IMG/VR virus record: IMGVR_UViG_3300046534_001186
Location: 1-56,356 of that record
Strand: one strand, 5' to 3'
DNA from: a virus
Lineage: Duplodnaviria > Caudoviricetes
DNA: 56,356 bases
Every line of letters starts with the position of its first letter. Within the stretch, counting starts at the first letter, position 1. The notes beneath the pieces are model-generated. The model did no database searches, had not been told where the DNA came from, and worked only from the letters and a program-made list of their open reading frames with translations. This document shows positions 3,548 to 46,578 of this stretch, in pieces. The position numbers and the translations under genes were made by a program.

Positions 3548-6500
3548 ATGTCCCGCACTCTTTACAACAAATTCAACCGAGGCGAGGTCGATGAGAAAGT
3601 CATGGCTCGCGACGACGTTGAAAGAATAGTCAACTCAGGCTCGCTAGTGGAAAACTTTACTCCGCTTAGAGCCGGTCCGATGCAGTACCGGCCCGGCTTC
3701 GAGTTCTCAGAGGCAGCCAAGCCCAACGAGTCGTACTACCTGATCCCATTTGTGGACGACGGGGAGAACCCCACTTTTCTTGAGCTGTCCCAGAGCGCGG
3801 CTAATCCCAGCGTAGAAACAGTCAGATTTATAGTCAACGATGCAGTGGCCACGGCCACTGCCACTGACGACACGCTTGCTAACGGCAGCTTCACCGATAA
3901 CATCGGCAGCTGGACGGCAGACCATGACGGGGCCGGAGCTGCGGCGTGGGACGCGGGGGGTAGAGCGAAACTAACTGGCGCCACCGCAAACGGTGCGTGG
4001 GGAAGACTCTACCAAACCGTGACCCAGTCTGCCGGCGAGAGAAGCATCAGGGTAGTGGTGGACAGCACCCCGATCCTAGTTCAAATAGGGACTGACGGCT
4101 CTCAAAGTTCTGACATATTTCAAGACGTACTGGGCTTAGGGATACACGTGCTCACCTTTACGCCGACCGACGATTACACAATTACGCTGTCTAATGACAA
4201 GCCGTACGCGGGCTACGTGTCCTTTTGCGACCATCTGGCCGCAGGGGCGATTGAGCTGTCCGGATCCATAGTCCTAGACACCACTACCACCGCTGGCACC
4301 CTGCAGTCGATACGGTACACGCAGGTCAATGACGTGTGCTTTATCACGGACGGGGCGTACATCACGGAGAGGCGGTCGTACCCGTTCTGGCTAATTAAGC
4401 GACGCGGGCTAAAGTCTTGGAGCTTTGAACTGCCCGAGCAACTAGACGGCCCGTTCGGTCCAATTAATATCACTGGCGTCACGCTGGCTGTGACTGCCAC
4501 TACTGGTGACACCACTCTGACTGCCAGCAGCGACTTCTTTAATGACACTGCCACTGACTACCGAGACCAGTATCAGATCGCTCACGGCGAGACGGCGGGG
4601 GTGTGCGAGATAACTTCGGTCACTAATAAAACTACTGCTCTCGTAAGAGTGCTGCGTGCGTTCGGTGCCACCACGGCTACAGCCGACTGGAATAAAGGGG
4701 AGCTGGGGATCACCACTCCTGGGCCTACGGCGTCTGAGATATTCGATGGCCGTCTTTGGTTAGCGGGGGGCGCTCGGCTTTGGGGGTCAGTGTCAGACAG
4801 ATACACCTCGTTCGACACCAGTCTGGACGGCAACTCCGCTGCAGTGTCAAAAACTCTTGGATTTGGACCAGTTCAAAACGTGTCTTGGCTTAGGGGGGGA
4901 GACATCCTGCTCATGGGGCTAAGCTCCGAGGAGGTGGAGGTTAACTCCAACGCGGACCAAGACGCTCTTAACGCGAATAACGCTCGGGTACGCAGGGCCA
5001 CTAATAAAGGCTCTGCCCGAGTAAGGCCTGAGGTCGTAGACAAGGTGGTCTACTTTGTTCAACGCGGGCTAAAGAAAATATTCGCACTTAGCGGGCTCCA
5101 GGGGGAGCAAGTGTCTGCCCAAGACACCACGATCCTGCACCCCAACATCACTAGCCCGGGCGTGCAGCGTATGGTGTACTCGAGCGAGCCCGAGCCCCGC
5201 ATGTATATTTTGCTAACGGATGGCAGCCTCAGGGTATTGCTATTTGACGAGGCGGAGGATGTCATCGCTTGGTCCCGAATCACAGTGGCAGGAGGAGGAG
5301 TAATTAAAGATATCGCTGCTTCCCCTACAACTGACGAAGACGCGGTAATGATAATAGTCGAGCGTGGCGGGGTAGCGTACATCGAGCGCCTCGCCAAGTA
5401 CTCAGAGTCGCTGGGTGGGCTCTCCTCTAGGCACTACGACAGCCATGTGGCGTTCGATGCGCCGGGTGGCACCCTAACGGGACTAGCGCACCTAGACGGA
5501 GTGCTGTGCCACGTCTGGGCGGACGGAGTGGAGAGACAGACAGTGACCCCCTCGTCCGGATCGGCCACTCTCGCGCAGTCAGGGTACGCCAAAGTTGTGA
5601 TAGGCATTCGACACACCGCTAAGTGGAAAAGCAACAAGCTGTCTCGTTATGTCGATAAGTCGGTCTTAAACTACCGCAAGCGAGTCGTGCAGATGGGGCT
5701 GGTCATGAGGTCCGTTGCGCTCCGTACCTTAAAGTACGGCGCGGACGAGCAGCACCTTAGCAGTATGCCGGAAACGGACCAAGGCAGGGCTAGGGCTCCA
5801 ACTGACGAGCCCATACCTTCTATAGTTGGGACAATCGTGGGTGCGACGGATGGAGCTATCAGCGTCCAAGAGATGCGGCTATTCGCTGGCACTGACAAGA
5901 CGTACCTAGTGGCTGCGTGTGACACCCTTGTGTCCGCCCCTAGCGCGCAGAGAATGCAGTTCTTGGCGTACTTAGACGGGTACATGTATAACGTGGGCGG
6001 CACTGACGTCAGTAATGGGAACCTCAAGGAGTTGTGGCGGTACGAGGTAGCCTCGGGTGCATACGACCAAATGGCCCCCGCCCCGAACATAGCAGTCGAG
6101 CACTCCGTGTGCGCCGGCGAAGGTAAGTTCATGGTGATGTCAGCGAGCGGCGGGTTTCAAGTGTACAACGTCTCGACCGACGCGTGGCTCGCATCCCCCG
6201 CCCAGCCGACTGCCGCTAGGAAAGAGGCAGCACTTGCCTACTACGATGGCAAGGTCTACTACTACGGAGGTAACAACGGGGGAGCGTCGAGCAACACTTG
6301 GGGGATATACGATGTGGGCGCCGACAGCTGGGACGAGACCGCGTATAGCGGCAGCCCCGAAACTAAAAGATCCCATTGCGCGGCAGCTCCTCAGTCGGGT
6401 GTCGGCGCAGGCAAAATCTATTTTTTTGGGGGACTCACTGGGGCCACCACTGACACTCGCAAGATGGAGATATACGACATTGGATCCAACACCTTCGGGA

Positions 6501-16400: not shown

Positions 16401-16877
16401 ACCAAGGCGGCTAGGCAGCTAATCGCAGTTCCGTTTGCGCTAGCGGCGGCCACGCAGTGGCTAGTAGCTGACTTCCCAGACGAAGACGACGAGGAGGGGC
16501 TGCTGTCTTGGTCCGCGAGAACGTACCTGGGGTTTATGTCAGGCACGATCCCGATGTCGGGGATGTTCGTGTCGGAGATGAGAGGGTTTGGCGCCCAGTC
16601 CATGACCACATCAGTCGCGGGCAAACTGGCGCAGGGACTCACTCTGCCGGGGCGAGCGTTCGGAGAAGACTCAGAAATGACCGCCTCCGAGGGGCTCTAC
16701 GAGTTGCTCACTATCACTGGAACGGTCATGCCGGTGCCGGGGCTAGGCAACGTGACGAGGATGCTGCAGTACTATAATTCTCGTCAAGATGGGAACGAAG
16801 ACGAGATTGAGGATATACTAGGCTGGACGCAGGAGACCTACCAGGCTCTAGTGGAAGGCTCGGATAAAAATCGGTAA
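10455..16877 (+). CDS. Large internal virion (ejection) protein, gp16-like polyvalent protein with ART-like and zincin-like domains
   Basis: 2140 aa. Contains YYHKS..GIYFASD..GEFIVFDPSQIRSVNAAFDP (ART-PolyVal-like) and IIKLFE.SDESTFLHEAAH (HExxH). Synteny fits. Confidence 0.75.
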   Translation: MPITPDQIRQMKQFDTDREAENLQSKLNASIGRDPSKDAEVLTLSNETQLPFDVVERRLPEIRKRGQSDPYDAKGLIASHPRTAQYLSSGRNALAAAQDIPAMRDLEDELWGKRKGTPFLKNTVLAMGERTNDLTGNLVELVGNLYSEVSAFDPTIEFGEDGMSFNFIDDSPRDPNAFQRVGKAVSEGSLGYVPTFTWENLKGDLSVANLAGYVVETGAQSMVDMAAMLTTMPAYLASRTEEIAESRVENIEGRDNVTLADLAASVPTAVLVSLIDRFSAKGILGLADDVPVGTGFGFAAKEVGKKGVLEGGTEFIQEQIEYAGEVLGTDVDFDAMVSLDRGLAGAVAGGPMGATIRTLSLPANALAARAEKEVSVRVESAVEQVSIANIITKIKGMKLSQSAPAEQRKFLEGLDGDHQLYVTPEEVLAAAEEGLPVPKAMLDQATNNPSTDVTIKVSEFGADVVSNEQLLARLETHMKMSPNSMTRAEMDAKDSSKIGDMMARAKQDSELRSEADAIHASVTDQLVATKRMTRAQAAKQAQLIPAYVTTSVERLRERGIDISVTEMYEKMNFTVEAATAPTTRKSGPEVLAQSQAEGYEGTDPGEAQEWVDGVAKFGAEGMTTEARMSRAAEMGFDADTVYYHKSKNDFSEFSRDVESGWTNDSKTNGIYFASDPYYAGMYPGTTVYPTYLKKGARIKDVSSNLELSDQHKETRKAEQDGFTAVRITDNSLGEFIVFDPSQIRSVNAAFDPDASSSPNILAQGPNSGDGQTLKQSVDLNEITDSMQELDLTVPLDKQGVDPKIIARIEKHVGEDMLAVLVENANADIADLTGSELHQFMARILSEGSLPYYTDSVGDPDIDAVRYLRRMGLFVAARDVSDDAALYQEGESGPTVKGELEFFSDDSRIIKLFETSDESTFLHEAAHLFLETEKQLAAEFGLGENQQSILDFLELDSFDSIPVEKHELFARTFEQYLRTGDAPSPTLRDAFVEFARWLSRVYQSALALNAPLTDEAKGMFDRLLATQKEIEDSKTEPVWAQFFKDIKSAGMTEAQWAKYQAQVKRKSERAEGSLYDKLTKQYMSRRTTEWNQERKPLVEMAMERLEDSPIYGAIKAMREVPLDSEALKPFLAGNPKAAGRFIALRKADGSGMDPRLYVEQFGFESVEAMVNAITNAPALKVAATAEAQRLMIKKYGDILNDGTLEKEVRDSLHNAEQAKLLQMELAAMARRRRTKEPLDLKALRSDAKKIISQMRAADIRPDKFYRSEVRAAVAAGKAKTAEEAYQAKLQQLANHYLYKEALAARRNAAKYRKHMFGVLNRTYRTSEVAKEYVQEMKQLVRMYNMKTPDERDAVAAKFFTFMSGQLEAGVPIDLKDHNLILLDHRNRLGGSIDFSMPLVSDLTMDQLRSAYEQLVHLRHMGGVEAQKEKAELVEKRQTLVDALQTKISKAANKRQYKTEKQLERASAPKSLFYKLPSLRNLIRDLDNGDAGAFAKLLWTPIYTAENKKLSIHKEWYDELNNLMTGPDGKEFDLSSINDNKESRVTIPGTGLSMTARERVMLALYWGEEYSRDAVIDGYRKAPTGEMELDEEGNSTKIKKKGEKTVSVENVEEMLENLTDQQIEIVNRIWQFHDYISAPLFESEYKRGGVAPEKIPAVPFEIRGKPMRGGHMRLYYHGQPTMELAAEATLISTNNVTPSKHGSVYERLGSGGKKVSMNMDNIFRNITEAIHKVAYTDAARELNQIYAHRSTREAITDAMGQGFEQALFENIRGLVTDMKEPQGDKYIAAASRWLRTSASSMYLSFGVRNIVQQFGTIITAVDELPGASYAVAVAEFASDWDGNTAKVNELSPQMASRDVNLNREHSEMLARVDTGTRFEKYVQVANRYGFKPHVFIDGMIAYPLWLKVYNNAIEQHGDLVRAASEADVSVAETVGSGLDINIGKFFRSNESEFIKLMGLFGSWFNGVIFQRAYKSTEGGSKVVSTKAARQLIAVPFALAAATQWLVADFPDEDDEEGLLSWSARTYLGFMSGTIPMSGMFVSEMRGFGAQSMTTSVAGKLAQGLTLPGRAFGEDSEMTASEGLYELLTITGTVMPVPGLGNVTRMLQYYNSRQDGNEDEIEDILGWTQETYQALVEGSDKNR

Positions 16878-16891
16878 CTAGGAGAACGATC

Positions 16892-17188
16892 ATGGCAATA
16901 GAAATTAGCGTGACAGGAACAACCATCACGTCGCTGGGAATTGTGGACGCGAGCAAGAAAGGCATGGCCATTCTCGTACGGGCGGCCAGCGATTTGGACG
17001 GCGGGACAATTACTATAAGCACCCGCCCGTCGGGGAACACTGGCGTACGGGAGGTATTGTCCACAGCTTTGGACGGGGCCGACCCCACAACAGCGTCCGC
17101 GACGTTCACGGTAGGGTCTATGATGGAGGTGTTCGCTACTCAGTCCGGCGCCAGCTCTACCGTAGTATACATCGTCTCTCAGTACTAG
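16892..17188 (+). CDS. Small beta-rich virion protein, hypothetical
   Basis: AGGAG RBS; located in the tail module. Confidence 0.6.
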   Translation: MAIEISVTGTTITSLGIVDASKKGMAILVRAASDLDGGTITISTRPSGNTGVREVLSTALDGADPTTASATFTVGSMMEVFATQSGASSTVVYIVSQY

Positions 17189-24977: not shown

Positions 24978-25339
24978 GATCCTTGCTCCTTTGCTGGTTG
25001 TTGGGCTTCAAGGGCTTTTCGGGCTAGTGCGCGAGCCACCCCAATGTCTAAAGTTTCGGATATATCCACTAGAATCTCTCTGATTACGATCACGCTATCA
25101 GCAGACTCAAGCTCGACTAGGCGCTGCTCTAATGCCTCTACCTTGTGTTCTGTTTTTATAATGTCTTCTTGAAGCGGGTTATTTACTGCTGCCCAGTAAT
25201 TAGCAAACCAGCCAGTCATTAATGCTGGGTCTATATCTTCTATCTTCCAGTTGTTTTCTTTCATTGCTTCATCAAAGGCAAGCGCCCAGTCTCTAGCGTT
25301 TGCGCTTCTTGTTTTTGTTAACTTCTCTAATATGCTCAA
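24974..25339 (-). CDS. Hypothetical cassette protein
   Basis: Ends in PAKEQGS; AT-rich. Confidence 0.65.
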   Translation of the reverse strand: MSILEKLTKTRSANARDWALAFDEAMKENNWKIEDIDPALMTGWFANYWAAVNNPLQEDIIKTEHKVEALEQRLVELESADSVIVIREILVDISETLDIGVARALARKALEAQQPAKEQGS

Positions 25340-25662
25340 GATCCTTGCTCCTTTGTTGGCAGCTCTAAAGTCTGCTCATCATCGTTTGGCCTAATTCCCA
25401 TAGGCTCTAAATTGATTGCCATGCGTTTTAATATGTTAGCAATCACGCAGTCGGGCGCAACATCGTCACCCCAGTCATCCCCATCGATGCTGAGAGCGTT
25501 CATTAGATAGCCAAGGCCATCGCTGATAGTCTCGCAAGCATCATCATAGGTGGGCTGATCTCTAAGCAGTTTTAGCTTTCCTTGAAGCTCGGCTATCTGC
25601 TTATCAAGCCCGCGTATGTGGTCCTCTAGCTTTTTCTCACGTACTTCATCAAAACAACTCAC
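25336..25662 (-). CDS. Hypothetical cassette protein
   Basis: Ends in PTKEQGS. Confidence 0.65.
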   Translation of the reverse strand: MSCFDEVREKKLEDHIRGLDKQIAELQGKLKLLRDQPTYDDACETISDGLGYLMNALSIDGDDWGDDVAPDCVIANILKRMAINLEPMGIRPNDDEQTLELPTKEQGS

Positions 25663-25994
25663 GATCTTTGCCCCTTTGCTGGCTGGGGGAAAGCGTACGT
25701 GGCCGCATGAAGCGCGGCGTCCACGGCTATGTATCGCGAAGGTATCCCCTTCTCCTCACAAAAGCGGGCCTCAAGGCGCTCCACGAAGGACACGAGCAGA
25801 GACTGCGATTGGAACGTGATCCTGTGGTGCTCGACGTAGTTGCCTATGTGCTTAAGCTCTAATTCGAGCGTGTCACAATTCGGGCGGCGTACTACGTGCG
25901 CGCGGGCGGTGTACATGGGTACTCCGTTAAGTTTTACCGTGCAGCTCGCGAACGATAGCGCGGCAGCAGTTATGAACGTGCGTCTATTTATCAT
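25659..25994 (-). CDS. Hypothetical cassette protein
   Basis: Ends in PAKGQRS; N-terminus resembles a Tat/lipoprotein signal (NRRTFI..ASC). Confidence 0.55.
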   Translation of the reverse strand: MINRRTFITAAALSFASCTVKLNGVPMYTARAHVVRRPNCDTLELELKHIGNYVEHHRITFQSQSLLVSFVERLEARFCEEKGIPSRYIAVDAALHAATYAFPQPAKGQRS

Positions 25995-26170
25995 GTGTCC
26001 TCCGGGTTAACCATGCCTAGTGACTTTCTCTTATCGGCAATCATCATGTTTAAGAATTTAATCTGCAGATCCCACGTACCGCGATCATGCCGGTCCGCTG
26101 ATCGCTCTTTTTGTAGGATAGCGTTGGCCCGCCTGGACTCAAGCTCCGGCAGCGTGTCGTTAAGTGCCAT
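25991..26170 (-). CDS. Hypothetical protein
   Basis: Start MALNDT follows an AAAGGAGCAAG junction motif. Confidence 0.6.
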   Translation of the reverse strand: MALNDTLPELESRRANAILQKERSADRHDRGTWDLQIKFLNMMIADKRKSLGMVNPEDT

Positions 26171-26573
26171 CGTCTTGCTCCTTTGGTTGTTGTTGCTGGC
26201 AAAGAAGGTCGGCAAGTTTTATTGCCATACCTTCACTAGGGACCTTAATTACCAAGTCGCCTTCCTTCAATTGATCTAAAGGCCCTGCAATAGCGGGTGA
26301 AACTTTTTCGCCTATAACTCCAGCCTTTGGAGCCTTGCTAATGAATACCGCAGGCTGGCCTTCGTAAAGTCCCGTGTCTACGATTAGCTCCCCTTTACCT
26401 ATCTCGATTACATGGTTCATCTGTCCTTGCTCCTTTGGTGGTTGATGACGCTTCTTCCAATTCTCTTTTTCTTGTTCGGTTTTCGCTTCATGGAAGATAG
26501 AGTCATACCCGTTTAGGAAAACCCATGTGTCGCAAACCACTAGCGCAGATAGTAGTATGCAAAATCCGATCAC
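26160..26573 (-). CDS. Hypothetical protein, probably two cassettes fused in frame
   Basis: Internal junction motif PPKEQGQ with RBS and ATG at 26420. Confidence 0.55.
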   Translation of the reverse strand: MIGFCILLSALVVCDTWVFLNGYDSIFHEAKTEQEKENWKKRHQPPKEQGQMNHVIEIGKGELIVDTGLYEGQPAVFISKAPKAGVIGEKVSPAIAGPLDQLKEGDLVIKVPSEGMAIKLADLLCQQQQPKEQDDGT

Positions 26574-27154
26574 GAGCCTTGCCCCTTTGCTGGCAGCTTT
26601 GAGAGGGCTTGCTTGAGTTCGCCAAATAACTTTGTCGCGCCGTCAGGGTCTGCGTAAACAGACTCGCCTTTGTCCAATACCGCCAGCAGGGATTCAGCGC
26701 ACTCTCGGCTAATGGACACGCTATCTTTAGCGCAAAAACCGCAATTGTTGGCGTCCTCAAAATCATGCCCTTTTACTTGGCAGAACACTTTGCTATCGCT
26801 GGATGAGGCCATGCGGTCAAGCCTCTCTCTTTCGCTACTAAGCATCTTCCCTGCTACTCCGTTACATACTATGTGATCGTTGCGATCGGCGCCCGTGGTG
26901 CTCTTAGCGATAGCATCCTGAATTCTTATTGCAGCTAGTCGGTAGCGGCCTGTTAGAAATTCCCCTTCTAGCTCAGTAACTTTCTCTGCTATTAGACCGA
27001 GGAACAGGGTTGCGTCTGTTTCCGTTATAACCACCCCTTCCAGCGGCACAGCGGTAAGTGGCCTCATCGCCTCGTCGCACGCGCAATCTGGCTTCGGTAT
27101 CTGGTACTTAGTGCACCAAAGGTTCGTGTCGTCTTTGCAGCTGTGGTTACTCAT
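26570..27154 (-). CDS. Hypothetical Cys-rich mosaic protein
   Basis: Cys clusters; ends in PAKGQGS. Confidence 0.6.
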   Translation of the reverse strand: MSNHSCKDDTNLWCTKYQIPKPDCACDEAMRPLTAVPLEGVVITETDATLFLGLIAEKVTELEGEFLTGRYRLAAIRIQDAIAKSTTGADRNDHIVCNGVAGKMLSSERERLDRMASSSDSKVFCQVKGHDFEDANNCGFCAKDSVSISRECAESLLAVLDKGESVYADPDGATKLFGELKQALSKLPAKGQGS

Positions 27155-34929: not shown

Positions 34930-35541
34930 ATGCTACCAAGAGTAATAGTAATATCCGGGTCCCAAGGGTCCGGTAAGTCCGTTACCGCCCTCGCGCTGGC
35001 CTCGGAGGCGGGGTCATACAACTGCGTTACGATGGCGGATTTGCGGGCGGGGCCGTTCGCTGTAGCCGGCGCGCTAGTGGGGTCTCCCGAGACGCTAATC
35101 GTGGATGAATGTGGCCTCCATTACAATGACAAGGCGTTTATGAAGCAACTACGCGCGCAAGAGGTGATGTGTGTGCAGTCGCGGGGCGAGAACCCTGTTA
35201 CCGTGCCGCGACCCCGCCTTATATTCATCGTGGCCGCCTCTGCTACCCCTGCAATGTCGGATCTGCTCACCGCCGATACTCTCGTGGTGCACATGACGGA
35301 GTCGGTGCCGACGCTCGACAAAGAGCCGATGCAAGTCGGGGACGAGGTCATCGTCCACGACAGATACCGATTCGCTAAACCTTTGCTCGGGGTCATTACA
35401 GGGACGGACGGGATCTCGCACGAAGGGGTGCGCGTAGAGCTAAAGCAAAGCAACAACCCGAATTGGCCCGTAGGTGCGGAAGTGTTAGTGAGCACTCACC
35501 AGCTGACCCCCGCCCCCGCAAAGACGGAGTGTGCCGAGTGA
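34930..35541 (+). CDS. Small P-loop NTPase-like protein with C-terminal beta domain
   Basis: GSQGSGKS; LIVDE. Confidence 0.6.
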   Translation: MLPRVIVISGSQGSGKSVTALALASEAGSYNCVTMADLRAGPFAVAGALVGSPETLIVDECGLHYNDKAFMKQLRAQEVMCVQSRGENPVTVPRPRLIFIVAASATPAMSDLLTADTLVVHMTESVPTLDKEPMQVGDEVIVHDRYRFAKPLLGVITGTDGISHEGVRVELKQSNNPNWPVGAEVLVSTHQLTPAPAKTECAE

Positions 35542-36158
35542 TGGCCTCCAAAGGTTTTGCCAAAACTGTGGTGGAGTACTTGGCGCAAGAGACAGTTAAG
35601 GTGCCTGCGTCGATTGGCCTCCACGGGGACACCCCGCGCGAGGACTACGTTAGCAAAGTTGACGGGTCGTACGTCGGGCTCGTTGGTTTTAGCGAAAAGG
35701 AGAAGGACAGCATTATCCAGTTCTGGATAGACCACGAGGTTACTCTGCTCCAAGGCGCAGGGTGCAAAGTGGCAAGAATAGGCTTTAGCGAGCGGGAACA
35801 GAAGTGGTACGGGTGGTCCCACCGCGCGATCTTCGGGTTTGGCGTGGGCAGCGAAGTCACCAAGGAATCCTCAGGTCACATGCCTCGCAACAAAGAGGAG
35901 TTCATGGAAGCGCAGCTCAGGTTCTGGGAGGACGATCTTCACGTGGGCACGAGAGCCGTGGAGGGCGTGGAGGGTTCGGAGAAGGGGGTTCGCGTGGCGT
36001 GGGAGTACTCGGAGGAGACCCCCAACCTTAAACTCCGTGGCACAACGGGTGGCCACTTCTCGCCCTACCCTGAGGAGTGGGGCAGGGGCGAGTGGACCGC
36101 CACCACACTTATGGAGGCCCGTGAGATGGCCATCGACTTTGCCGAGAGTGTGGGTTAG
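35541..36158 (+). CDS. Conserved hypothetical phage protein
   Basis: IGFSE.EQKWYGWSHRAI.GFG.G..A..MA..FAESV. Confidence 0.7.
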   Translation: MASKGFAKTVVEYLAQETVKVPASIGLHGDTPREDYVSKVDGSYVGLVGFSEKEKDSIIQFWIDHEVTLLQGAGCKVARIGFSEREQKWYGWSHRAIFGFGVGSEVTKESSGHMPRNKEEFMEAQLRFWEDDLHVGTRAVEGVEGSEKGVRVAWEYSEETPNLKLRGTTGGHFSPYPEEWGRGEWTATTLMEAREMAIDFAESVG

Positions 36159-38731: not shown

Positions 38732-38758
38732 AAAAGGGGCCGCAAGGCCCCCCATTTC
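38730..38758. terminator. Intrinsic terminator hairpin
   Basis: A-tract-GGGGCC-GCAA-GGCCCC; the better U-tract is on the minus strand. Confidence 0.65.
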
Positions 38759-39659: not shown

Positions 39660-39875
39660 TCATTCTCCAAAGTTTTCAGATTTAATAGTTAAGCCTTTAT
39701 CGGCTAGCTTTTTTTCGTACTTGTCGGCTTGCGCTTCGCTGCTAAACTTGCGGAAGTCGAGACTACAGTGCGGGAACTGGCAACCGAACTTCGTGCACAC
39801 GTAGGGTGAGCACTCCGTCTCAGTTGAGGCGATCAAGGTGTGGTGCCTAAGGTAGTCCGCCCGTTTAATTGCCAC
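39660..39875 (-). CDS. Small Cys/His protein
   Basis: C...C...C...HC; overlaps the csrA stop. Confidence 0.5.
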   Translation of the reverse strand: MAIKRADYLRHHTLIASTETECSPYVCTKFGCQFPHCSLDFRKFSSEAQADKYEKKLADKGLTIKSENFGE

Positions 39876-40044
39876 CGACCAGCTCCCCGCGCACCACGTT
39901 GATGTGTTTAGGCGCCTCGATGCCGACCCTAACCTGACCCCCGTCCACTTTGCGTATTACCACGGTCACCACGGTGCCTGTGTCTTGGTCAGTCAGTATC
40001 AAGGTGTCTTGAGTTTCTTTAGCCCTACGCGTCAGGAAAAGCAT
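39865..40044 (-). CDS. csrA: CsrA/RsmA family translational regulator, 59 aa (not in ORF track)
   Basis: MLFLTRRAKETQDTLILTDQDTGTVVTVVIRKVDGGQVRVGIEAPKHINVVRGELVGGN matches the ML.LTRR..E..VTV..QVR.G..AP....V.R.E pattern; AGGAG RBS. Confidence 0.9.
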   Translation of the reverse strand: MLFLTRRAKETQDTLILTDQDTGTVVTVVIRKVDGGQVRVGIEAPKHINVVRGELVGGN

Positions 40045-40613: not shown

Positions 40614-40815
40614 TGGTCTGTCTCCTCGGTTCGCGCCCACTATATGCACAGTTCCAGCAGTGGCCCCGAACCCTCTTTATTTGTTATCGCAAGCTCTACA
40701 GCTCCCCATACTTCCCCGTCGTCGTTGACTATGTTTATCGGGGCTTCCTCTAAATCGACTCCATCCATTTTGAGCATGGTTAGTGCGTCGATTAGCTCTT
40801 GAAGTGATGTAACTC

Positions 40816-41022
40816 TCATTGGTCTGTTTCCTCCAGCGTGTAGCCCGCTGCTGCTATGTAGTCACGCGCGCTTTGCTCCGCATCGTCCGCCGCGTCCGGG
40901 CCGTAGCTCGGGTCACTGGCGTCCGGGAAAGTGTCTTGCCAGCCCAGCGCCTCAGCTTCGCTTAAAATGTCACCGAAACCGTCAACTTTGATCGGCTCCT
41001 TTTGGGGGGTAGTCGTTGTCAT
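40816..41022 (-). CDS. Acidic hypothetical early protein
   Basis: Preceded by a leader repeat; strongly Asp/Glu-rich. Confidence 0.7.
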   Translation of the reverse strand: MTTTTPQKEPIKVDGFGDILSEAEALGWQDTFPDASDPSYGPDAADDAEQSARDYIAAAGYTLEETDQ

Positions 41023-41103
41023 AACGTGGTCCTTGTAGTTAACGATAGAAAGCCTATCAGCAGTACCGCTCGTGGTGAGCGATACTGAGTTAGGCTCTCG
41101 GCT

Positions 41104-41670
41104 TTATGAGTAGGTCACACTGTGCGCTAGCCCGCGTGAAATTTTGTTATCTCGCTCGAGACCGTCAACAAAATCAACGTATGCCGAGCGCGTGGTTGCG
41201 TTCTGCTTGTTCTGATTACCGTCAATAACTGTCAGGCCCGTTTCGCTAGCGTACTGTCGAAAGGCGCTGTTAACTTGGTCCGCGTCCTCTATTGGCCACG
41301 ATGGGGTATCGGCCTCGCAGAATATCGCCCCACTCTCTCCTGAGGCCACCGCCAATCTTGTAAAAACCGTTGCATACGTGTTGGCGTATAGCTCCGGTCG
41401 GTCCCAGTATCCTACCCCGTGCCCGTTTCGGGTCAGCCAATAGTCGTGCCCGGCTTGCGCTGGGCTCGCTTTGCAGCGCGACAGCCTCCCCGCGATAAGA
41501 TCATAAAAAGCGGTGCACTCGATCGCGCACTTTCGCGCGTAGTCTTCATCTAGCTCCGCGCCGTGCTCGGGCTGGTCCGTGTCCCCACATTCTGTGAAGT
41601 TGATAGCCTCTATATAGCCGTTAATGAACTCCACTTCTTGCGCGTTTAACTCGATAGATTCAATGGTCAT
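41104..41670 (-). CDS. Conserved early phage protein
   Basis: AGHDYWLTRNGHG.GYWDR motif; start reassigned to just after the repeat. Confidence 0.7.
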   Translation of the reverse strand: MTIESIELNAQEVEFINGYIEAINFTECGDTDQPEHGAELDEDYARKCAIECTAFYDLIAGRLSRCKASPAQAGHDYWLTRNGHGVGYWDRPELYANTYATVFTRLAVASGESGAIFCEADTPSWPIEDADQVNSAFRQYASETGLTVIDGNQNKQNATTRSAYVDFVDGLERDNKISRGLAHSVTYS

Positions 41671-41755
41671 AGCGTTGTGCTCCCTGTAGTTTAGCGATAG
41701 AAAATCTATCAGCAGTACCACTCACCACGAGCGGTACTGAGTTAGACTCTCGGCT

Positions 41756-42421
41756 TTAGATAAGGCCCTTTGCCGCGAACGACATCGAATTGCCTCCACC
41801 CACTATTATGTGGTCCAGCACTTGGACCTCGATAGCTTTCAGGGAGTTAATTAGCTTATTAGTAATGGCGAGATCCGCGCGAGACTCGACCACAATGCCG
41901 CTGGGGTGATTGTGGTATATGACCACGGCGGCGGCGTTGCACTTTAGCGCCGCTTTGACCACCTCGCGCGGGTATACCATTGCGCTGCTTATGGTGCCCG
42001 AGCTGATTACCTGCCGCTCGATAAGTCGGTGTTGGCTGTCCAGCATGAGCATGCCGAACTCCTCATGGTCAAGCTCGCCAACTGATAGCGCCAGCCAGTT
42101 CTTAACCTGTGAGTCGCTGGTGCCGATAAACTCGTGCTCGCACCGTTTCCGTAGTATGTCTATCGCGTGCGCGATGATGCTGTCCTCGTCTTGTGGGCTA
42201 GCGGGGGAGTCGATCACATAGTCGGGGGCCGGTCCGCTGCTCAGTTGGCCCTCGGTCATGATGGCCGCGATCTGCTCCACTTGATGCCTTGAGCAATTCA
42301 GAAAATTAGTCGGCAACTCGCGATCGGACGCCGACAGTCTAATAGTGAATCCGGTTCGCTCGGTGGTGCCTTCTAGCAGCCTTTGAAATTGATTGTTTAC
42401 ATAGCTGGTTTTAGTAGTCAT
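41756..42421 (-). CDS. radC: RadC-like JAB-domain protein
   Basis: EEF..L.LD..H.LI..GTI....VYPREV.K.AL...AAAV..YHNHPSG..SRAD..T..L...VLDHIIVG. Confidence 0.92.
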   Translation of the reverse strand: MTTKTSYVNNQFQRLLEGTTERTGFTIRLSASDRELPTNFLNCSRHQVEQIAAIMTEGQLSSGPAPDYVIDSPASPQDEDSIIAHAIDILRKRCEHEFIGTSDSQVKNWLALSVGELDHEEFGMLMLDSQHRLIERQVISSGTISSAMVYPREVVKAALKCNAAAVVIYHNHPSGIVVESRADLAITNKLINSLKAIEVQVLDHIIVGGGNSMSFAAKGLI

Positions 42422-42446
42422 AACAGTTTCCTTGTATTGAATTAGT

Positions 42447-42474
42447 AGTATATCAGGTTTGCCGGTCCGGTCAA
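42447..42474 (-). promoter_or_regulatory. Sigma70-like promoter upstream of radC
   Basis: TTGACC-N16-TATACT; shares TTGACCGGACCG with the promoter at 28997. Confidence 0.6.
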
Positions 42475-42578
42475 TTTGTCTCGTGACGCCCTCCAGGTGC
42501 CCGTTTCCTTGTAGTTAACGATAGAAAATCTATCAGCAGTACCACTCGCGGTGAGCGATACTGGGTTAGACTCTCGGA

Positions 42579-43151
42579 CTAGTGCCCGTTATTAATTCCC
42601 GTTTGATACATCGGATCACCGGCCCACGGGCGCGCGTTGGAATAGCTGGTTAACGAGAACCCGTGTTCGTTAATTATCTTGTGGAAACTTTCGCCCGTCT
42701 CGAGGTTAGGGTCTGCGACCACGTGATCATTACCGCAGCTGTCCGTGCGTTCGACAGTGCCCGCCACTTCAATCAACGTGAAGCGCATCCCACTGCGCGC
42801 GAGCACCTTATAGAAGTCTATGTTGGTCTGTTCATACCCCCACGAGGAGTAGAACAGATCCCCGACTTTAGTATTTTCGGCCATCGCTTGCCGCGCCTGT
42901 TTAACTTCGTCTATTTTATTCTGGTCGTATCGGCTGTCCCCTTTCAGGCCATCAAAAAACCGGTCGATAGAGATCTGCCGCTGCTCCTCATTGCCATAAT
43001 AATAGCGCATCGATGGCTTCTGAGCTTTGCCCCTAAAGGCGAGTAGGGAGGGTTTCCCGTTGGCGTTGGTGCTGGTGTAAACTTCTGCGGTTAGGCCCTC
43101 TCGCGTGATGAGTCGGGCACCCGTGGGGATGTAGTCTTGTCTTTTTAGCAT
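42579..43151 (-). CDS. Conserved hypothetical early protein
   Basis: VGDLFYSSWGYEQTNIDFYKV motif; start reassigned to MLKRQ. Confidence 0.7.
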   Translation of the reverse strand: MLKRQDYIPTGARLITREGLTAEVYTSTNANGKPSLLAFRGKAQKPSMRYYYGNEEQRQISIDRFFDGLKGDSRYDQNKIDEVKQARQAMAENTKVGDLFYSSWGYEQTNIDFYKVLARSGMRFTLIEVAGTVERTDSCGNDHVVADPNLETGESFHKIINEHGFSLTSYSNARPWAGDPMYQTGINNGH

Positions 43152-43232
43152 AACGTGGTCCTTGTAGTTGGTGATAGAAAGCCTATCAGCAGTACCACTC
43201 ACCACGAGCGATACTGAGTTAGACTCTCGGGG

Positions 43233-43757
43233 CTATAGCTGCTGATCCTTAATTGAGAGCGCGACCGCTTCACACAACGGGAGTGAATTAAGCACGACAC
43301 CAACCGCCCCCCAGCTCGGCGGATATTCTCCCCCCGCGATAGCCTTTAGCAGGTGGTCCCGTGCCTTGGCAGATAGCGCCCGCGTCTGCCAGATCCCGCC
43401 CGTGTCGGTTTTGGTCCACAGCACGCGCTTAGCTAACAGCCTCTTTACGTCTCTCTCTTGTAGCCACGCCACGAGTAATCCGTCTATTACATTATCAATC
43501 GATTCCCTGTATCTGAACGGCTCGTTGTGGGTGCCTGACATCTCCGCGACAATATCCGGCAGCGTGTCGATATACTCTTGAATCTTTTGGCGCATCGTGC
43601 GCAAGTTAAACTCGACATCGGTGCAGCCCCCGTGCCCGCTATTTGCTGCGGACCCCACGCGCACGCCATCAAAATACACTGTGCACTCGAAACAATTGGT
43701 TTCCTGCGAGGCGAACTGTGCGTGCTTAACATTCTTAATGCTTAGTCTGCTGGTCAT
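43233..43757 (-). CDS. Conserved hypothetical early protein
   Basis: SQET.CFE..VY.DG.......N.GHGG motif. Confidence 0.7.
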   Translation of the reverse strand: MTSRLSIKNVKHAQFASQETNCFECTVYFDGVRVGSAANSGHGGCTDVEFNLRTMRQKIQEYIDTLPDIVAEMSGTHNEPFRYRESIDNVIDGLLVAWLQERDVKRLLAKRVLWTKTDTGGIWQTRALSAKARDHLLKAIAGGEYPPSWGAVGVVLNSLPLCEAVALSIKDQQL

Positions 43758-43834
43758 AACGTGATCCTTGTAGTTAATGATAGAAAGCCTATCAGCAGTA
43801 CCACTCGCGGTGAGCGATACTGAGTTAGACTCTC

Positions 43835-44446
43835 TTAAACGCGAGTCGGCATTATTACGAACTCGCCTAGCGGGCCTTTCCCGCGTGCGCTGTCGTTCGG
43901 TGTCGCCCCCACTAGCATAGTGACCGGCCCCCCATTAGCGACTTTATCGAGTAGGATCTTTTGGAAGTGGGCGGGACCGATTTTAACTAATGGGGAGCTT
44001 TTACCGTGCAGATCCCTATCGATAACTTGGACTGTGAGCGGGTCCACTACCACGCTGTCTCGGTTTCGCGTGGGGATCACACGGTTAATATCAGGATAGA
44101 CGAACGAGCACTCCACGGGATCACCTGTTTTGGGGTGATAGTATCCGGCGGGCTTATCTGTCGGCGCCCAGCCTAGAATATGACCATCTGTCGCGCGCAT
44201 GTGGGTGCCATCGCTGTGCAAGTATCGAAGAAAAGAACGCACGTCCTTGTCATTAGCAACAAATCGGGCGAGCCATTGTTCGGCCGTCTTTGCTTTTGCT
44301 GGGGCGGAGGGGGCAAAGTGGAGCAGTAGTGCTAGCTTTTCGCTTTCTAGGATGGTTCCACCTGCTGCGATACCGCGCGCGATAGCGTACGCGTCCTTTC
44401 TGTTTGCTGCCTTTGTACCTTCTGGGATGTTAATTAAAGGGGTCAT
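43835..44446 (-). CDS. Truncated beta-clamp (DnaN)-like protein
   Basis: DVR.FL..ATDGH.L..YPD..RVIP, resembling DnaN domain II and its linker. Confidence 0.65.
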   Translation of the reverse strand: MTPLINIPEGTKAANRKDAYAIARGIAAGGTILESEKLALLLHFAPSAPAKAKTAEQWLARFVANDKDVRSFLRYLHSDGTHMRATDGHILGWAPTDKPAGYYHPKTGDPVECSFVYPDINRVIPTRNRDSVVVDPLTVQVIDRDLHGKSSPLVKIGPAHFQKILLDKVANGGPVTMLVGATPNDSARGKGPLGEFVIMPTRV

Positions 44447-44523
44447 AACGTGGTCCTTGTAGTTGGTGATAGAAAGCCTATCAGCAGTACCACTCGTGGT
44501 GAGCGATACTGAGTTAGACTCTC

Positions 44524-44766
44524 TTAGCTGCTAGCTGGTGCGCTCTCGATCACAAAGTAATACCCGCAGAATACAGGGAATGTGTCTCCCACTTCGCCTA
44601 GACCTATTTTGCGGAGCATTTCCATAGCTTCTGCGGTCTGCTCCTCGGTGTAGCCCCCGCCGCAAGTTCGTAGGCATAGATCTGCCACTTGTGAGTCGGT
44701 CGCCGCGTGGGTGGCCATCCATCCCGTTTTAGTTAGCCTAATAGATGTAGGGGCTAGGCTGCTCAT
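44524..44766 (-). CDS. Hypothetical early protein
   Basis: Translationally coupled to the upstream gene. Confidence 0.55.
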   Translation of the reverse strand: MSSLAPTSIRLTKTGWMATHAATDSQVADLCLRTCGGGYTEEQTAEAMEMLRKIGLGEVGDTFPVFCGYYFVIESAPASS

Positions 44767-44996
44767 TACACCACCTTCTTAATTGACTGAATGATCAGTT
44801 TGCCATAGTGAGTGCCTAGCATTGCTTCGACTTCTTGCCCGTCAAAGTTTGTGACGCCGTACCCTTCTGAGCTATCGACCGCTGTTTTGGCCTCGTACCC
44901 GTCCAGCTCCACCAGATAGCGGGGGTTGCCATTCTCGGAGCTGGGCTCTCGCTGTATTACAGTCAAGATCCCTGTGTGGCGTGTGGCGTTTTTCAT
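44766..44996 (-). CDS. Hypothetical early protein
   Basis: SS.NGNPRY motif; start follows a repeat. Confidence 0.7.
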   Translation of the reverse strand: MKNATRHTGILTVIQREPSSENGNPRYLVELDGYEAKTAVDSSEGYGVTNFDGQEVEAMLGTHYGKLIIQSIKKVV

Positions 44997-45074
44997 AACG
45001 TGGTCCTTGTAGTTTAGCGATAGAAAATCTACCAGCAGTACCACTCGTGGTGAGCGATACTGAGTTAGTCTCTC

Positions 45075-45242
45075 TTAGCTGCTGGCCTTTAGATCTGCTG
45101 CTATTGTGGACCGCAGGAAGTTAACAGCGCGTTGACTGCCAGCGCTGCGCACCATCGACTCTAACTGTGCGCGGTACGCAGCAGTATTGCCTAGTGCTAG
45201 GTGTTGCCGTGCCATCGCGATCTGACGTGTGTACATCTTCAT
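45075..45242 (-). CDS. Hypothetical early protein (55 aa)
   Basis: Start reassigned to MKMYTRQ. Confidence 0.55.
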   Translation of the reverse strand: MKMYTRQIAMARQHLALGNTAAYRAQLESMVRSAGSQRAVNFLRSTIAADLKASS

Positions 45243-45244
45243 AG

Positions 45245-45418
45245 CTATAGCACCTGCGCGCGGACGGCGATTGTATAGCCTAGGGTCTTGATACTTTCTA
45301 GCGTGGCCCGTGTGAGAGTAGATGTACCCGCTATTTCGCAGAATACTCGTGATCTCTTGCACTCGGGGTAGATAAGCTCGCGCCCGTAGTTGCTCTTAAT
45401 GCTTACTAGTAATTCCAT
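45245..45418 (-). CDS. First early protein (57 aa)
   Basis: AAGGAG RBS; K..YG...IYP.C.....F..IAG..TLT..IK.LGY.I motif. Confidence 0.7.
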   Translation of the reverse strand: MELLVSIKSNYGRELIYPECKRSRVFCEIAGTSTLTRATLESIKTLGYTIAVRAQVL

Positions 45419-45467
45419 CTTAACCGCTCCTTGTAGGTGGCGCGCTGTGTTGCGAGCCAATACGCAG

Positions 45468-45496
45468 ACATTACGCCCTATTGACTCCTTGGTCAA
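45468..45496 (-). promoter_or_regulatory. Early sigma70-like promoter with TTGAC-N6-GTCAA palindrome
   Basis: TTGACC-N17-TAATGT. Confidence 0.65.
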
Positions 45497-45512
45497 GCAC
45501 TTAGAGCCACTA

Positions 45513-45857
45513 GGCCCGAATAAACTCTGCCTTTACTCGGGCCTAGCATTCGGGCCACCTATATCTTGTTGATATCTAAAGAGAATCCGTAAAAGTGGCC
45601 CGAAGGCCCGAATAAACGCACTCTCAATCCCACACAGCTGGCACAGCTAGTGCTGCTGCTGGTGCTGGTGCGCGCTGCTGCGCTGCGCTGCTGGTGGTGC
45701 TGCGCAGCAGCGCTTGGTTTTGTTGATGGGTGGTTTTGGCTCTAATGGTGGCCTTTATGCCTCTTTATACCCCTACTAGACTAATAAGGGTATATAAAAG
45801 AAGGGGTTAGGGGCCTCGGGTCTTGTGGCCCGAATAGGTGGCCCGAATGGGCCCGAA
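45513..45857. repeat. GGCCCGAA iteron-like cluster
   Basis: Direct copies at 45513, 45596, 45604, 45827, 45840 and 45850; inverted copy at 45549. Confidence 0.8.
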
Positions 45858-46202
45858 TGAGAATAGAGGGGTATCGGGCCGACCCCCTGTGGTTTACACG
45901 CGCTGCTGCGTGTTGCTGCGTCCTGCTGCTGGTGCTGGGGGAGCGCTAAGCACGCAGGGGGTCTTAAAACGTGGGGCTGCTGCGCGTGCGTGCTGCTGCG
46001 CTGCTATCAATAGCCTGTGGTTGCTGCGCGCTGCTGCTGGTGCTGGTGCTGCTGGTGCTGCTGGTGCTGCTGGTGCTGCGCTGCTGGTGCTGCGCGCTGC
46101 GCTGCCATCAATAACTTGTGGTTGCTGCGGGTGCGTGCTGCGCTGCGGGATCTGCTGCGGGTGCGTGCTGCTGCGCTGCGCTGCGGGATTTGCTGCGCGC
46201 TG
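45650..46202 (+). repeat. Non-coding (GCT)/(GCTGGT)/(GCTGC) low-complexity tract
   Basis: Ten GCTGGTG copies, all on the plus strand. Confidence 0.85.
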
Positions 46203-46578
46203 AGGCTCAATGCTCTACAGGCCACGGCGCGCCTGGGCTCAGCACCCGCCGTTTTGACGGGCACCCCCCGCTCAAAGGGGGGCCGGCCGATCGCTGTACG
46301 CCCCCTTATACCCGAAGGAACACTCCACGACTTAAAGTTGGCTGCAGCAGCGCGTAGCAGCGGACCGCCTTCCCTGCACACAAAACCGAGCGCATACTTA
46401 AATTTTTCAACAAGAGGCTCTCATTAGGGGGGCGAACGACATGTGTGCAACGGGGAAAGTAAGTGCTACACTCAGCGCTCGGGAGGGTTTAATTGTGTTA
46501 CACCTAACCGAGTTAAGTATTGTCTTTACGACCAGACTTCCTTAGGGGCTCGCCCCCTAGGGCTTTTTAGAGGTTAGT

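Follow-up and report, generated by a model that had tools for sequence, protein, structure and literature searches.

The window analysed here, the whole stretch of 56,356 nucleotides, is the complete 56-kb genome of an uncultured phage. A leftward operon carries seven copies of a repeat of about 86 nt (r1 to r7), each placed between two genes (7/7). The genes and the RNA sense of the repeats are on the minus strand, which is the coding strand of the operon. Copies are spaced 551–824 nt apart. The lower stem of each repeat begins 0 nt (r5, r6, r7), 3 nt (r3) or 4 nt (r1, r2, r4) after the stop codon of the upstream gene, and a ribosome site and an ATG follow in every copy except r3 (Table 1). 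Past r1 lie seven closely spaced genes without hairpins. A 30-nt core pattern, allowing up to three mismatches, gives seven matches in the window and none in 100 shuffles. These seven are the only matches in the whole virus record, and the pattern is absent from the 185,579 bacterial and archaeal genomes searched. The original prediction had described seven conserved hairpins between genes, each starting just past a stop codon and followed in six cases by a ribosome site and an ATG, and this description holds throughout.

The signals for a single early transcript are weak promoter candidates and one terminator-like site. Promoter-like sites are no more numerous in the region than in shuffles, and the sigma70-like internal site is therefore a candidate only. 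The weak candidate for the operon promoter matches the −10 hexamer at only 3/6 positions and is absent from the list of the promoter scan. No promoter-like site lies inside a repeat (0/5). We infer that the leftward mRNA is probably early, on promoter signals that are weak.

Table 1. Features of the leftward operon, in the direction of transcription (all coordinates refer to the window)
Feature	Position	Strand	R1 score (bits)	Predicted cut	Ribosome site	ATG (product)	Remarks
Operon promoter, weak candidate	45468..45496	-					TTGACC, 17 nt, TAATGT; found by eye
Ribosome site of first gene	45428..45434	-			ACAAGGA	45418	no hairpin
r7	44992..45077	-	92.6	45034/45033	ACAAGGA 45010-45004	44996	stop TAA 45077-45075; lower stem 45074-45066 with 45031-45023; upper stem 45062-45052 with 45046-45036; mini-hairpin onset 45033
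r6	44441..44526	-	97.9	44483/44482	ACAAGGA 44460-44454	44446 (203-aa cargo)	first three bases are the upstream gene's stop TAA
r5	43752..43837	-	98.3	43794/43793	ACAAGGA 43771-43765	43757 (174-aa cargo)	
r4	43146..43231	-	94.3	43188/43187	ACAAGGA 43165-43159	43151 (190-aa cargo, P0001)	loop inverted (GUGGU, 43205-43201)
r3	42493..42578	-	91.2		ACAAGGA 42512-42506		sole copy without ATG; followed by a 77-nt segment bearing the sigma70-like promoter candidate
Internal promoter, sigma70-like candidate	42447..42474	-					TTGACC, 16 nt, TATACT, with TG; 10/12 consensus
Ribosome site of RadC-like JAB gene (42421-41756)	42429..42435	-			ACAAGGA		no hairpin of its own
r2	41669..41754	-	85.2		ACAGGGA	41670 (188-aa cargo)	loop inverted (GUGGU, 41728-41724)
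r1	41017..41102	-	100.8	41059/41058	ACAAGGA 41036-41030	41022 (68-aa gene)	
CsrA-family gene, 59 aa	39865..40044	-					PF02599, 4.4e-12, above cut-off; distal in same operon
Cys-rich gene, 71 aa	39660..39875	-					overlaps csrA end
Terminator-like hairpin with T run	38734..38753	-					likely end of leftward operon

Fold and covariation of the repeats

All seven window copies share the fold originally predicted, which consists of a 9-bp lower stem, a 3×4 internal loop (ACU / CUGA), an 11-bp upper stem and a 5-nt loop. Minimum free energies of the 86-nt segments range from −21.2 to −32.5 kcal/mol, and r7 has a single A·A mismatch in a stem. The fold is strand-specific, in keeping with the earlier observation that mismatches are G-U wobbles only in the mRNA sense: for the 52-nt core, the mRNA sense is more stable than the antisense by 7.2–15.2 kcal/mol in each of the seven copies.

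The compensatory variants that had been claimed inside the window are not found there. Variation among the window copies is one-sided and affects four pairs (G-C/G-U, U-G/U-A/C-G), and the 99.3% of cells that pair are no better than in shuffled columns. Since none of the 20 pairs changes on both sides, the variants TAGGCTTTC/TAGATTTTC show that wobble is tolerated opposite a 5' arm that stays the same, and are no case of compensation.

True compensatory changes become visible only when copies from related phages are added. Five homologous copies occur in three other uncultured contigs, with three in the viral contig L008 and one each in the metagenome contigs L023 and L024. Across the resulting 12 copies, 99.1% of 228 cells pair, compared with 32–60% in slid controls, and two-sided changes affect 7/19 pairs, a number reached by 0/500 shuffles. 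The upper stem covaries freely (two-sided changes in 6/11 pairs), and the lower stem and internal loop are near-invariant across the four sources. Orientation and register, from stop codon through repeat to ribosome site, are identical in 12/12 copies. Covariation across phages, together with the stability of the sense strand, thus supports the predicted RNA-level function on the mRNA strand.

Likeness to the RNase III sites of T7 and T3

A covariance model (model R1), built from 10 copies of the window-repeat family only, was searched against 7.6 kb of T7 and the full 38.2-kb T3 genome. The four best matches in the 7.6 kb of T7 are R1.1 in the gene 1/1.1 gap (E 4.4e-9), R0.5 in the 0.4/0.5 gap (E 1.3e-8), R1.3 in the 1.2/1.3 gap (E 1.8e-4) and R0.3 in the gene 0.3 leader, the last at only E 1. 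Across the T3 genome, every match below E 1e-3 (4/4) is an annotated ‘RNase III recognition site’: R0.5 (8.8e-8), R1.1 (3.6e-7), R4.7 (8.9e-7) and R0.3 (1e-5). Thus 4 of the 10 annotated T3 sites are matched at E ≤ 1e-5. Matches to the T3 sites R1.3, R6.5, R3.8 and R18.5 are weak (E 0.84–5.4), the T3 site called R1 has no match to the model, and R13 is matched only on the opposite strand. Eleven unrelated loci (108,234 bases) gave a single match, at E 0.84. Letters shared by the window family and T7/T3 are GUC/GGC in the upper stem and, at the loop, AACU on its 5' side and UGAU on its 3' side.

Because the model matches R1.1, R0.5 and R1.3 of T7 and four T3 sites, the RNase III-like processing suggested earlier is well supported by likeness, with cleavage as a prediction from sequence. 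We consider it probable that the host RNA polymerase makes a polycistronic leftward mRNA, likely an early one, in which the repeats serve as RNase III processing signals of the T7/T3 type. Since the seven copies match the T7/T3 cut signals, they are a familiar control element in a new phage.

In both groups, an asymmetric internal loop separates two stems that stack on each other and are roughly 9 and 11 bp long; the literature gives a 4×5 loop for R1.1, against 3×4 here. Both sets of signals are intergenic, often overlapping the upstream stop codon. The window phage differs in lacking a gene for a T7-like RNA polymerase in the set of ORFs scanned, in carrying seven copies at the spacing given above, and in following each hairpin with a mini-hairpin and ACAAGGA, neither of which appears in the T7/T3 alignments and folds. 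Among 50,697 phage records, its capsid protein has one weak match and the repeat region none. By likeness, T7-type RNase III signals would not be confined to T7-like phages, as an unrelated, polymerase-less 56-kb environmental phage appears to use such a signal seven times. The likeness could reflect shared enzyme requirements, common descent or transfer. The R1-type covariance model is ready for use in annotating T7-type sites.

Proposed processing of the message

A Pfam scan of 58 window ORFs found no RNase III domain, which implies that the enzyme would come from the host. Stacked on each other, the 9-bp stem, 3×4 loop and 11-bp stem would amount to roughly two helical turns of double-stranded RNA. 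If host RNase III treats them like T7 R1.1 and R0.5, it would cut once, on the 3' side of the internal loop between the U and G of CUGA; this position is based on T7 site coordinates that reportedly go back to Dunn and Studier in 1983. On the upstream message the upper hairpin would then remain as a cap at the 3' end, with a putative protective role against exonucleases. The downstream message would open with a conserved 5-bp mini-hairpin (GAUAG-N5-CUAUC), whose first base would be the new 5' end; about 8 predicted unpaired bases, ACAAGGA and the ATG would follow. In r2 and r3 this end would lie at 41710 and 42534. With these two products, each repeat would serve as a standard module that closes one message and opens the next. 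A single cut is consistent with PMC1540722, according to which E. coli RNase III cuts only once at stems with internal loops and a protective hairpin stays at the 3' end, and with the single bond described as cut in R1.1 RNA (PMC4858673).

The mini-hairpin pairs in 60/60 cells of the 12 copies and lies at the 5' end in 7/8 folds of the predicted downstream product. Its support comes essentially from one covarying pair, which is AU in 7 copies, GC in 4 and GU in 1. It is also weak: when folded, the 54–59-nt products have energies of only −5.4 to −8 kcal/mol, and shuffles do as well. The conserved 5-bp mini-hairpin at the predicted new 5' end is a new feature. Together with ACAAGGA, it would make a compact and testable leader for producing unrelated genes from one message.

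The hairpins may instead stay uncut, acting as passive barriers against 3' exonucleases or keeping the translation of one gene independent of the next. Termination of translation at the stop codon beside the lower stem would then open this stem, the mini-hairpin could fold in its place, and the result would be a two-state switch. The geometry is suited to this, as the stop codon adjoins or overlaps the lower stem in 12/12 copies, and mini-hairpin and lower stem are mutually exclusive because they share bases; a motif that RNase III binds without cutting is also known (PMC1540722). However, neither predicted state pairs the ribosome site, so the switch would have no obvious output, and the elements score like T7/T3 sites that are cut. 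Uncut hairpins are in our judgement unlikely, and processing by RNase III is preferred.

A possible link to a phage-encoded CsrA

The pair formed by csrA and its Cys-rich neighbour is conserved in L008, and a similar Cys-rich ORF was seen by eye in L023. In three phages (window, L008, L023) csrA lies in the same operon as the hairpin. The window protein aligns to residues 1–47 of E. coli CsrA, a stretch that takes in the MLxLTRR start and the VxRxE arginine, residues with a role in RNA binding by CsrA. It has two insertions relative to E. coli CsrA (8 residues in total) and falls below the NCBIfam CsrA equivalog cut-offs.

ACAAGGA is present in 11/12 elements, with r2 carrying ACAGGGA, and at two further ribosome sites of the operon. 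Genome-wide, 9/13 occurrences lie on the minus strand of 41030-45434. The motif overlaps the ribosome site, places GGA in an ACA..GGA context and matches the CsrA binding consensus, which was obtained by SELEX as RUACARGGAUGU with ACA and GGA invariant (PMC4347634). The repeats thus resemble CsrA/RsmA leaders in holding the consensus ACA and GGA at the ribosome site. They are also found in a phage that encodes a CsrA-family protein, just as other phages and plasmids carry csrA; PMC7366521 counts 30 phages with csrA and assigns the genes no function. The repeats differ from these leaders in having one site per leader in 11/12 elements, two or more GGA sites occurring only in L008 h3 (1/12), and in lacking stable hairpin-loop display, GGA being unpaired or in weak, inconsistent pairings in the predicted downstream RNA folds. 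The phage CsrA is itself divergent, and its binding is putative. A link between ACAAGGA and CsrA is, on sequence grounds, a possible new feature of the family.

A more speculative reading, which we hold only tentatively, is that the repeat is a three-part portable unit (RNase III cut site, 5'-end hairpin and CsrA-type ribosome site) through which phage CsrA would control all cassettes. CsrA made from the far end of the operon would bind ACAAGGA and switch off (or stabilise) the cassette messages together. The outcome would be a self-timed early programme, by analogy with T4 RegA, with the Cys-rich neighbour as a partner or antagonist of CsrA. If true, this would be the first time that a phage-encoded CsrA is given a set of cis targets and a function, and the CsrA link, should it hold, would supply a reason for the presence of csrA in some phages.

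The lower stem and internal loop are conserved far beyond the known needs of RNase III, which may be a sign that something else reads the sequence. The hairpin might accordingly be an operator for a phage RNA-binding protein, either CsrA or another small operon protein, and no RNase III signal. The contrast between a near-invariant base and a covarying upper stem, and the shared operon of csrA and hairpin in three phages, would suit such a role. Against this, the same conserved letters occur in the T7/T3 sites, with no annotated csrA in the T7/T3 stretches examined; GGA is absent from every hairpin loop; and nine other CsrA-encoding viral contigs (L009-L018, of which L011 and L012 look alike) have no such hairpin. 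An operator function seems quite improbable beside the RNase III reading.

Cargo genes and proposed cassette exchange

The cargo genes of the window are not paralogues of one another. One encodes a RadC-like JAB protein, and relatives carry C5 DNA methylases. The anti-host or anti-defence role that had been proposed for the cargo stays putative; PADLOC matched 0/15 cargo proteins. Relatives differ in their cargo, csrA and its neighbour alone being common to the window and the related contigs.

A comparable arrangement is the PeSL cassettes of T4-type phages, in which a repeated stem-loop motif lies between small variable genes and modular shuffling has been proposed; PeSLs are described as pairing an early promoter with a terminator-like stem-loop (PMC2839356, PMC4122927). 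The window repeats, by contrast, have no internal promoter-like site and no T run after the hairpin.

That the repeats are a mobile or recombination element of DNA without RNA function, the fold being a by-product of palindromic arms, is very improbable: the inverted loops of r2 and r4 are a DNA-level event, copies are more alike within than between genomes and assembly contigs break at repeats, but all 12 copies keep one orientation and register between stop codon and ribosome site, G-U pairs make the fold strand-specific, compensatory changes maintain RNA pairing and the pattern is absent from the 185,579 bacterial and archaeal genomes searched.

The original prediction had also proposed that the repeat is a plug-in unit and at the same time a recombination site, which is supported only in part. 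Among the contigs compared, all of them distant (CsrA 50–53% identical), there was no swap between close relatives, and the contigs examined contain no alternative junction. What stands is that the variant sites among the window copies occur in all four combinations, and that two gene gains or losses in relatives adjoin a hairpin. In L023, a methylase gene lies between the 242-aa gene and the hairpin, and in L024 a 141-aa gene lies between the hairpin and the methylase; L008 has neither.

Structure of the repeats

An element of about 86 nt occurs seven times (r1 to r7) in a leftward gene block of this phage, whose record of 56,356 bp is rated 100% complete by CheckV. A 30-nt core pattern matches exactly these seven copies, and matches nothing in 100 shuffles. 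In the mRNA sense, each element opens 0, 3 or 4 nt after the stop codon of the upstream gene with a 9-bp lower stem, followed by an internal loop (ACU / CUGA) and an 11-bp upper stem closed by a 5-nt loop; CUAUC comes next and, after a short spacer, ACAAGGA, which is separated from the ATG by 7 nt. The exceptions are r2, which has ACAGGGA and a longer spacer, and r3, which lacks the ATG. In all seven copies, the 52-nt core folds 7.2-15.2 kcal/mol more stably in the mRNA sense than in the antisense, a strand-specific stability that is due to G-U pairs.

The stems have no T run behind them, so a role as transcription terminators was rejected, and a promoter within the repeat (the PeSL idea) was ruled out by a promoter scan. 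The only Rfam match was a sub-threshold snoRNA, which was disregarded.

Two local rearrangements are visible among the copies. The loops of r2 and r4 read GUGGU, the reverse complement of ACCAC in r1, r6 and r7. Such a change reflects a short inversion of the segment between the two arms, which takes place at the DNA level, and suggests that the loop sequence is unconstrained. After r3, two copies of the 10-mer ACAAGGAAAC lie at a distance of 77 nt and flank a segment with a candidate sigma70-like promoter. It looks as if a promoter-bearing piece had been placed behind the r3 ribosome site, ahead of the ATG of the RadC-like gene.

Positions of the features discussed (window unless another record is named)
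Feature	Record	Position	Strand
Leftward gene block with repeats	window	~45,420 to 39,258	-
First repeat, r1	window	41017-41102	-
Last repeat, r7	window	44992-45077	-
GUGGU loop of r2	window	41724-41728	-
GUGGU loop of r4	window	43201-43205	-
Paired 10-mers after r3	window	42426-42512	-
sigma70-like promoter	window	42474-42447	
csrA	window	39865-40044	-
csrA and Cys-rich small gene	window	39660-40044	
csrA and Cys-rich small gene	L008	3381-3735	
csrA and similar ORF	L023	2414-2772	
ACAAGGA at hairpin-less operon genes	window	45434; 42435	
Internal ACAAGGA before an in-frame ATG	window	37543	
csrA ribosome site	L017	7930	
csrA ribosome site	L018	1299	
Unannotated match of model R1	L028 (T3)	16849-16935 (T3 25849-25935)	
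Contig joint	window	39000/40150	opposite strands
Parts matched by run X2	window	40731-42219; 45070-45221	
Tad6-like ORF	window	35463-36158	+
Region before the small-terminase gene	window	45500-46400	
GCTGC-rich unit, twice repeated	window	45995-46202	
24-nt motif	window	24980-26599	-

Relatives and covariation

Megablast against 50,697 phage records found no close relatives of the repeat region, and none were found by blastn with one repeat. Two strict exact-pattern scans of viral contigs and a pattern scan of bacterial and archaeal genomes returned nothing, while searches for related viral loci gave none confirmed with the terminase and one weak match with the capsid protein. A looser pattern scan of viral contigs recovered a single contig, L008. 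The same contig was the closest of 11 loci found among viral contigs with the CsrA protein of the window, and it carries three homologous hairpin elements 5' of its own csrA, on the same strand. A metagenome scan, with a pattern generalised from the window and L008 copies, returned three loci: one hairpin copy each was found in L023 (from a 55.7-kb contig) and L024, and the third, L022, was a chance match without a hairpin. In addition, a second public DNA run (X2) yielded, at low depth, five short pieces with 90-100% likeness to parts of the operon, and a close relative is therefore present in another sample.

Within the window, the compensatory variants that the original prediction had described did not hold up: not one of 20 pairs has changed in both partners, four differ in a single partner only, and an A.A mismatch is present in r7. 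Across the 12 copies from all four sources, 99.1% of 228 cells are paired, and both-sided changes occur in 7 of 19 pairs, six of them in the upper stem, a number reached in none of 500 shuffles. Slid controls on the same alignment gave 32-60% pairing. Together, pairing and both-sided changes indicate that the RNA structure is under selection.

Likeness to T7 and T3 RNase III sites

The covariance model of this family (model R1) was built from the ten copies then known and contains no T7 or T3 sequence. Searched against the first 7.6 kb of T7, it matches hairpins at the gene 1/1.1 (E 4.4e-9), 0.4/0.5 (E 1.3e-8) and 1.2/1.3 (E 1.8e-4) junctions, and weakly the 0.3 leader (E 1). The T7 records do not annotate these sites, which we take to be R1.1, R0.5, R1.3 and R0.3, respectively. 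The T3 RefSeq record annotates ten 'RNase III recognition sites', and model R1 finds R0.5 (E 8.8e-8), R1.1 (E 3.6e-7), R4.7 (E 8.9e-7) and R0.3 (E 1e-5). It matches R1.3, R6.5, R3.8 and R18.5 weakly (E 0.84-5.4) and R13 on the opposite strand only, and it misses the annotated site R1, which shares just its label with the model. All four T3 matches at E <1e-3 are annotated sites, and eleven unrelated loci (108,234 bases) gave a sole match, at E 0.84.

Letters common to the T7 and T3 alignments are AACU on the 5' loop side, GUC and GGC in the upper stem, and UGAU on the 3' side. When folded, the T7 sites show two stems arranged as in the window elements. Given the model matches, common letters and two-stem folds, the elements group by likeness with the RNase III signals of T7 and T3. 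The resemblance to RNase III hairpins that had first been proposed is thus borne out, since a model of this family only finds the T7 sites and 4 of 10 T3 sites at E <=1e-5. The element type is ordinary and its setting is new: the interest lies in a demonstrable family tie to T7/T3 sites in an unrelated phage, and further in a mini-hairpin at the predicted new 5' end and a possible link to CsrA.

Model R1 gives one more T3 match, at the junction of genes 13 and 14 (E 0.015), where no site is annotated.

Proposed processing

We take T7 to be cleaved at 5887 (R1.1) and 1468 (R0.5), positions attributed to Dunn and Studier (1983); each of them coincides with UAU↓GAU in the T7 sequence. In the alignment of model R1, the counterpart in the window elements is CU↓GA. 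A cut there would leave a downstream RNA that starts at the G opening a 5-bp hairpin, GAUAG-N5-CUAUC, and this mini-hairpin might cap the 5' end of the processed message. It has bases in common with the lower stem and so cannot form until the latter has opened or been removed by a cut. All 60 of its cells are paired; one of the pairs is AU in seven copies, GC in four and GU in one, and the mini-hairpin stands at the very 5' end in seven of eight folds of the predicted product. The mini-hairpin is weak, and the predicted short product RNAs fold no better than shuffles. Internal loops confine E. coli RNase III to a single cleavage, and the 3' hairpin that remains protects upstream RNA (PMC1540722); R1.1 RNA is described as cleaved at one bond only (PMC4858673).

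Ribosome site and a possible CsrA link

Of the 12 elements, 11 carry ACAAGGA, though the flanking spacers vary between phages, and the heptamer also serves two operon genes of the window that have no hairpin. Genome-wide it occurs 13 times, nine of them on the minus strand of 41,030-45,434. Outside the operon none precedes a start codon, save for one internal site that merely precedes an in-frame ATG, and the remaining genes mostly have GGAG-type ribosome sites. The CsrA SELEX consensus, RUACARGGAUGU, has invariant ACA and GGA (PMC4347634), both of which are contained in the phage ACAAGGA.

The operon itself encodes a CsrA-family protein (Pfam PF02599, 4.4e-12), which aligns to residues 1-47 of E. 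coli CsrA, the MLxLTRR start included. In the window, in L008 and in L023 alike, csrA occupies a distal position within this operon. However, 11 of 12 copies have one ACAAGGA-type site per leader, the folds do not display ACAAGGA in a hairpin loop, and other CsrA-encoding viral loci lack these hairpins. Control of the cassettes by CsrA seems to us possible but rather unlikely.

In the window and L008, csrA forms a conserved pair with the overlapping Cys-rich small gene behind it (42% identity over 38 residues); visual inspection shows a similar ORF after csrA in L023. As a function for the small protein, either cooperation with the phage CsrA or antagonism to it is conceivable. Tblastn with the window CsrA matched no phage record, and the L008 protein matched 45; the one Vibrio phage inspected among these was of a different phage type. 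PMC7366521 records csrA in 30 phages, with no function assigned. In two other csrA-carrying viral contigs, L017 and L018, the csrA ribosome site is ACAAGGAG.

Cargo genes and possible exchange between copies

The cassettes are not paralogues, as no match was found among window cargo proteins at E 1e-2. Nor are they related to L008 and L023 proteins, except for csrA and its neighbour. Identified cargo comprises a RadC-like JAB protein in the window and C5 DNA methylases in L008 and L023. A PDB sequence search with four cargo proteins gave nothing below E 0.4, the ESM Atlas gave unnamed viral clusters only (0.83), and homologues in other phages are all 'hypothetical' save one 'putative peptidase'. 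The suggestion that the cargo is directed against host defences found no backing when PADLOC was run (0 of 15).

Gene content differs beside the hairpins. A conserved 242-aa gene (56% identical between L023 and L008) is separated from the hairpin by a methylase gene in L023, whereas in L008 no gene intervenes. In L024, a 141-aa gene lies between the hairpin and a methylase gene, the latter 83% identical to the L008 methylase gene that directly follows its hairpin. Upper-stem letters are genome-specific and common to the copies of one genome, and all four combinations of variants are seen among the window copies (GC/AU in columns 50-51 against 5' flank or loop type is one case), which suggests exchange between copies. 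The gene gains and losses and the variant combinations are compatible with recombination at the repeats without proving it. The predicted role as a recombination site is thus partly upheld: two gene gains or losses adjoin a hairpin among the distant relatives compared, but the only contig joint reported lies, in the covered parts, outside the repeat region. The source assembly breaks at the repeats when contigs of two DNA runs are compared.

Genome context

The structural module of the phage is podovirus-like, and the genome further encodes a primase, a helicase and a family A DNA polymerase. Among the window ORFs scanned, none showed a domain of an RNA polymerase or of RNase III, no tRNAs were found in the window, and no RNA run with this phage is listed among the sequencing runs.

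Outside the repeat region, one ORF is a candidate for an anti-defence function, as it matches the Pfam family Tad6 (3.2e-32), which inhibits type I Thoeris. The stretch of about 900 bp from the operon start to the small-terminase gene has no convincing gene; it contains six or more copies of GGCCCGAA/TTCGGGCC, oriented either way, together with a GCTGC-rich unit of 101 nt that is repeated twice, and may serve as an operator, an origin or a region for packaging. A 24-nt motif, CCAGCAAAGGRGCAAGG, occurs six times, in four cases directly preceding TTG or GTG starts of overlapping small genes of the replication module. These motifs may encode C-termini that tandem paralogues have conserved, or they may form a second type of repeated start signal, one that bears two GGA.
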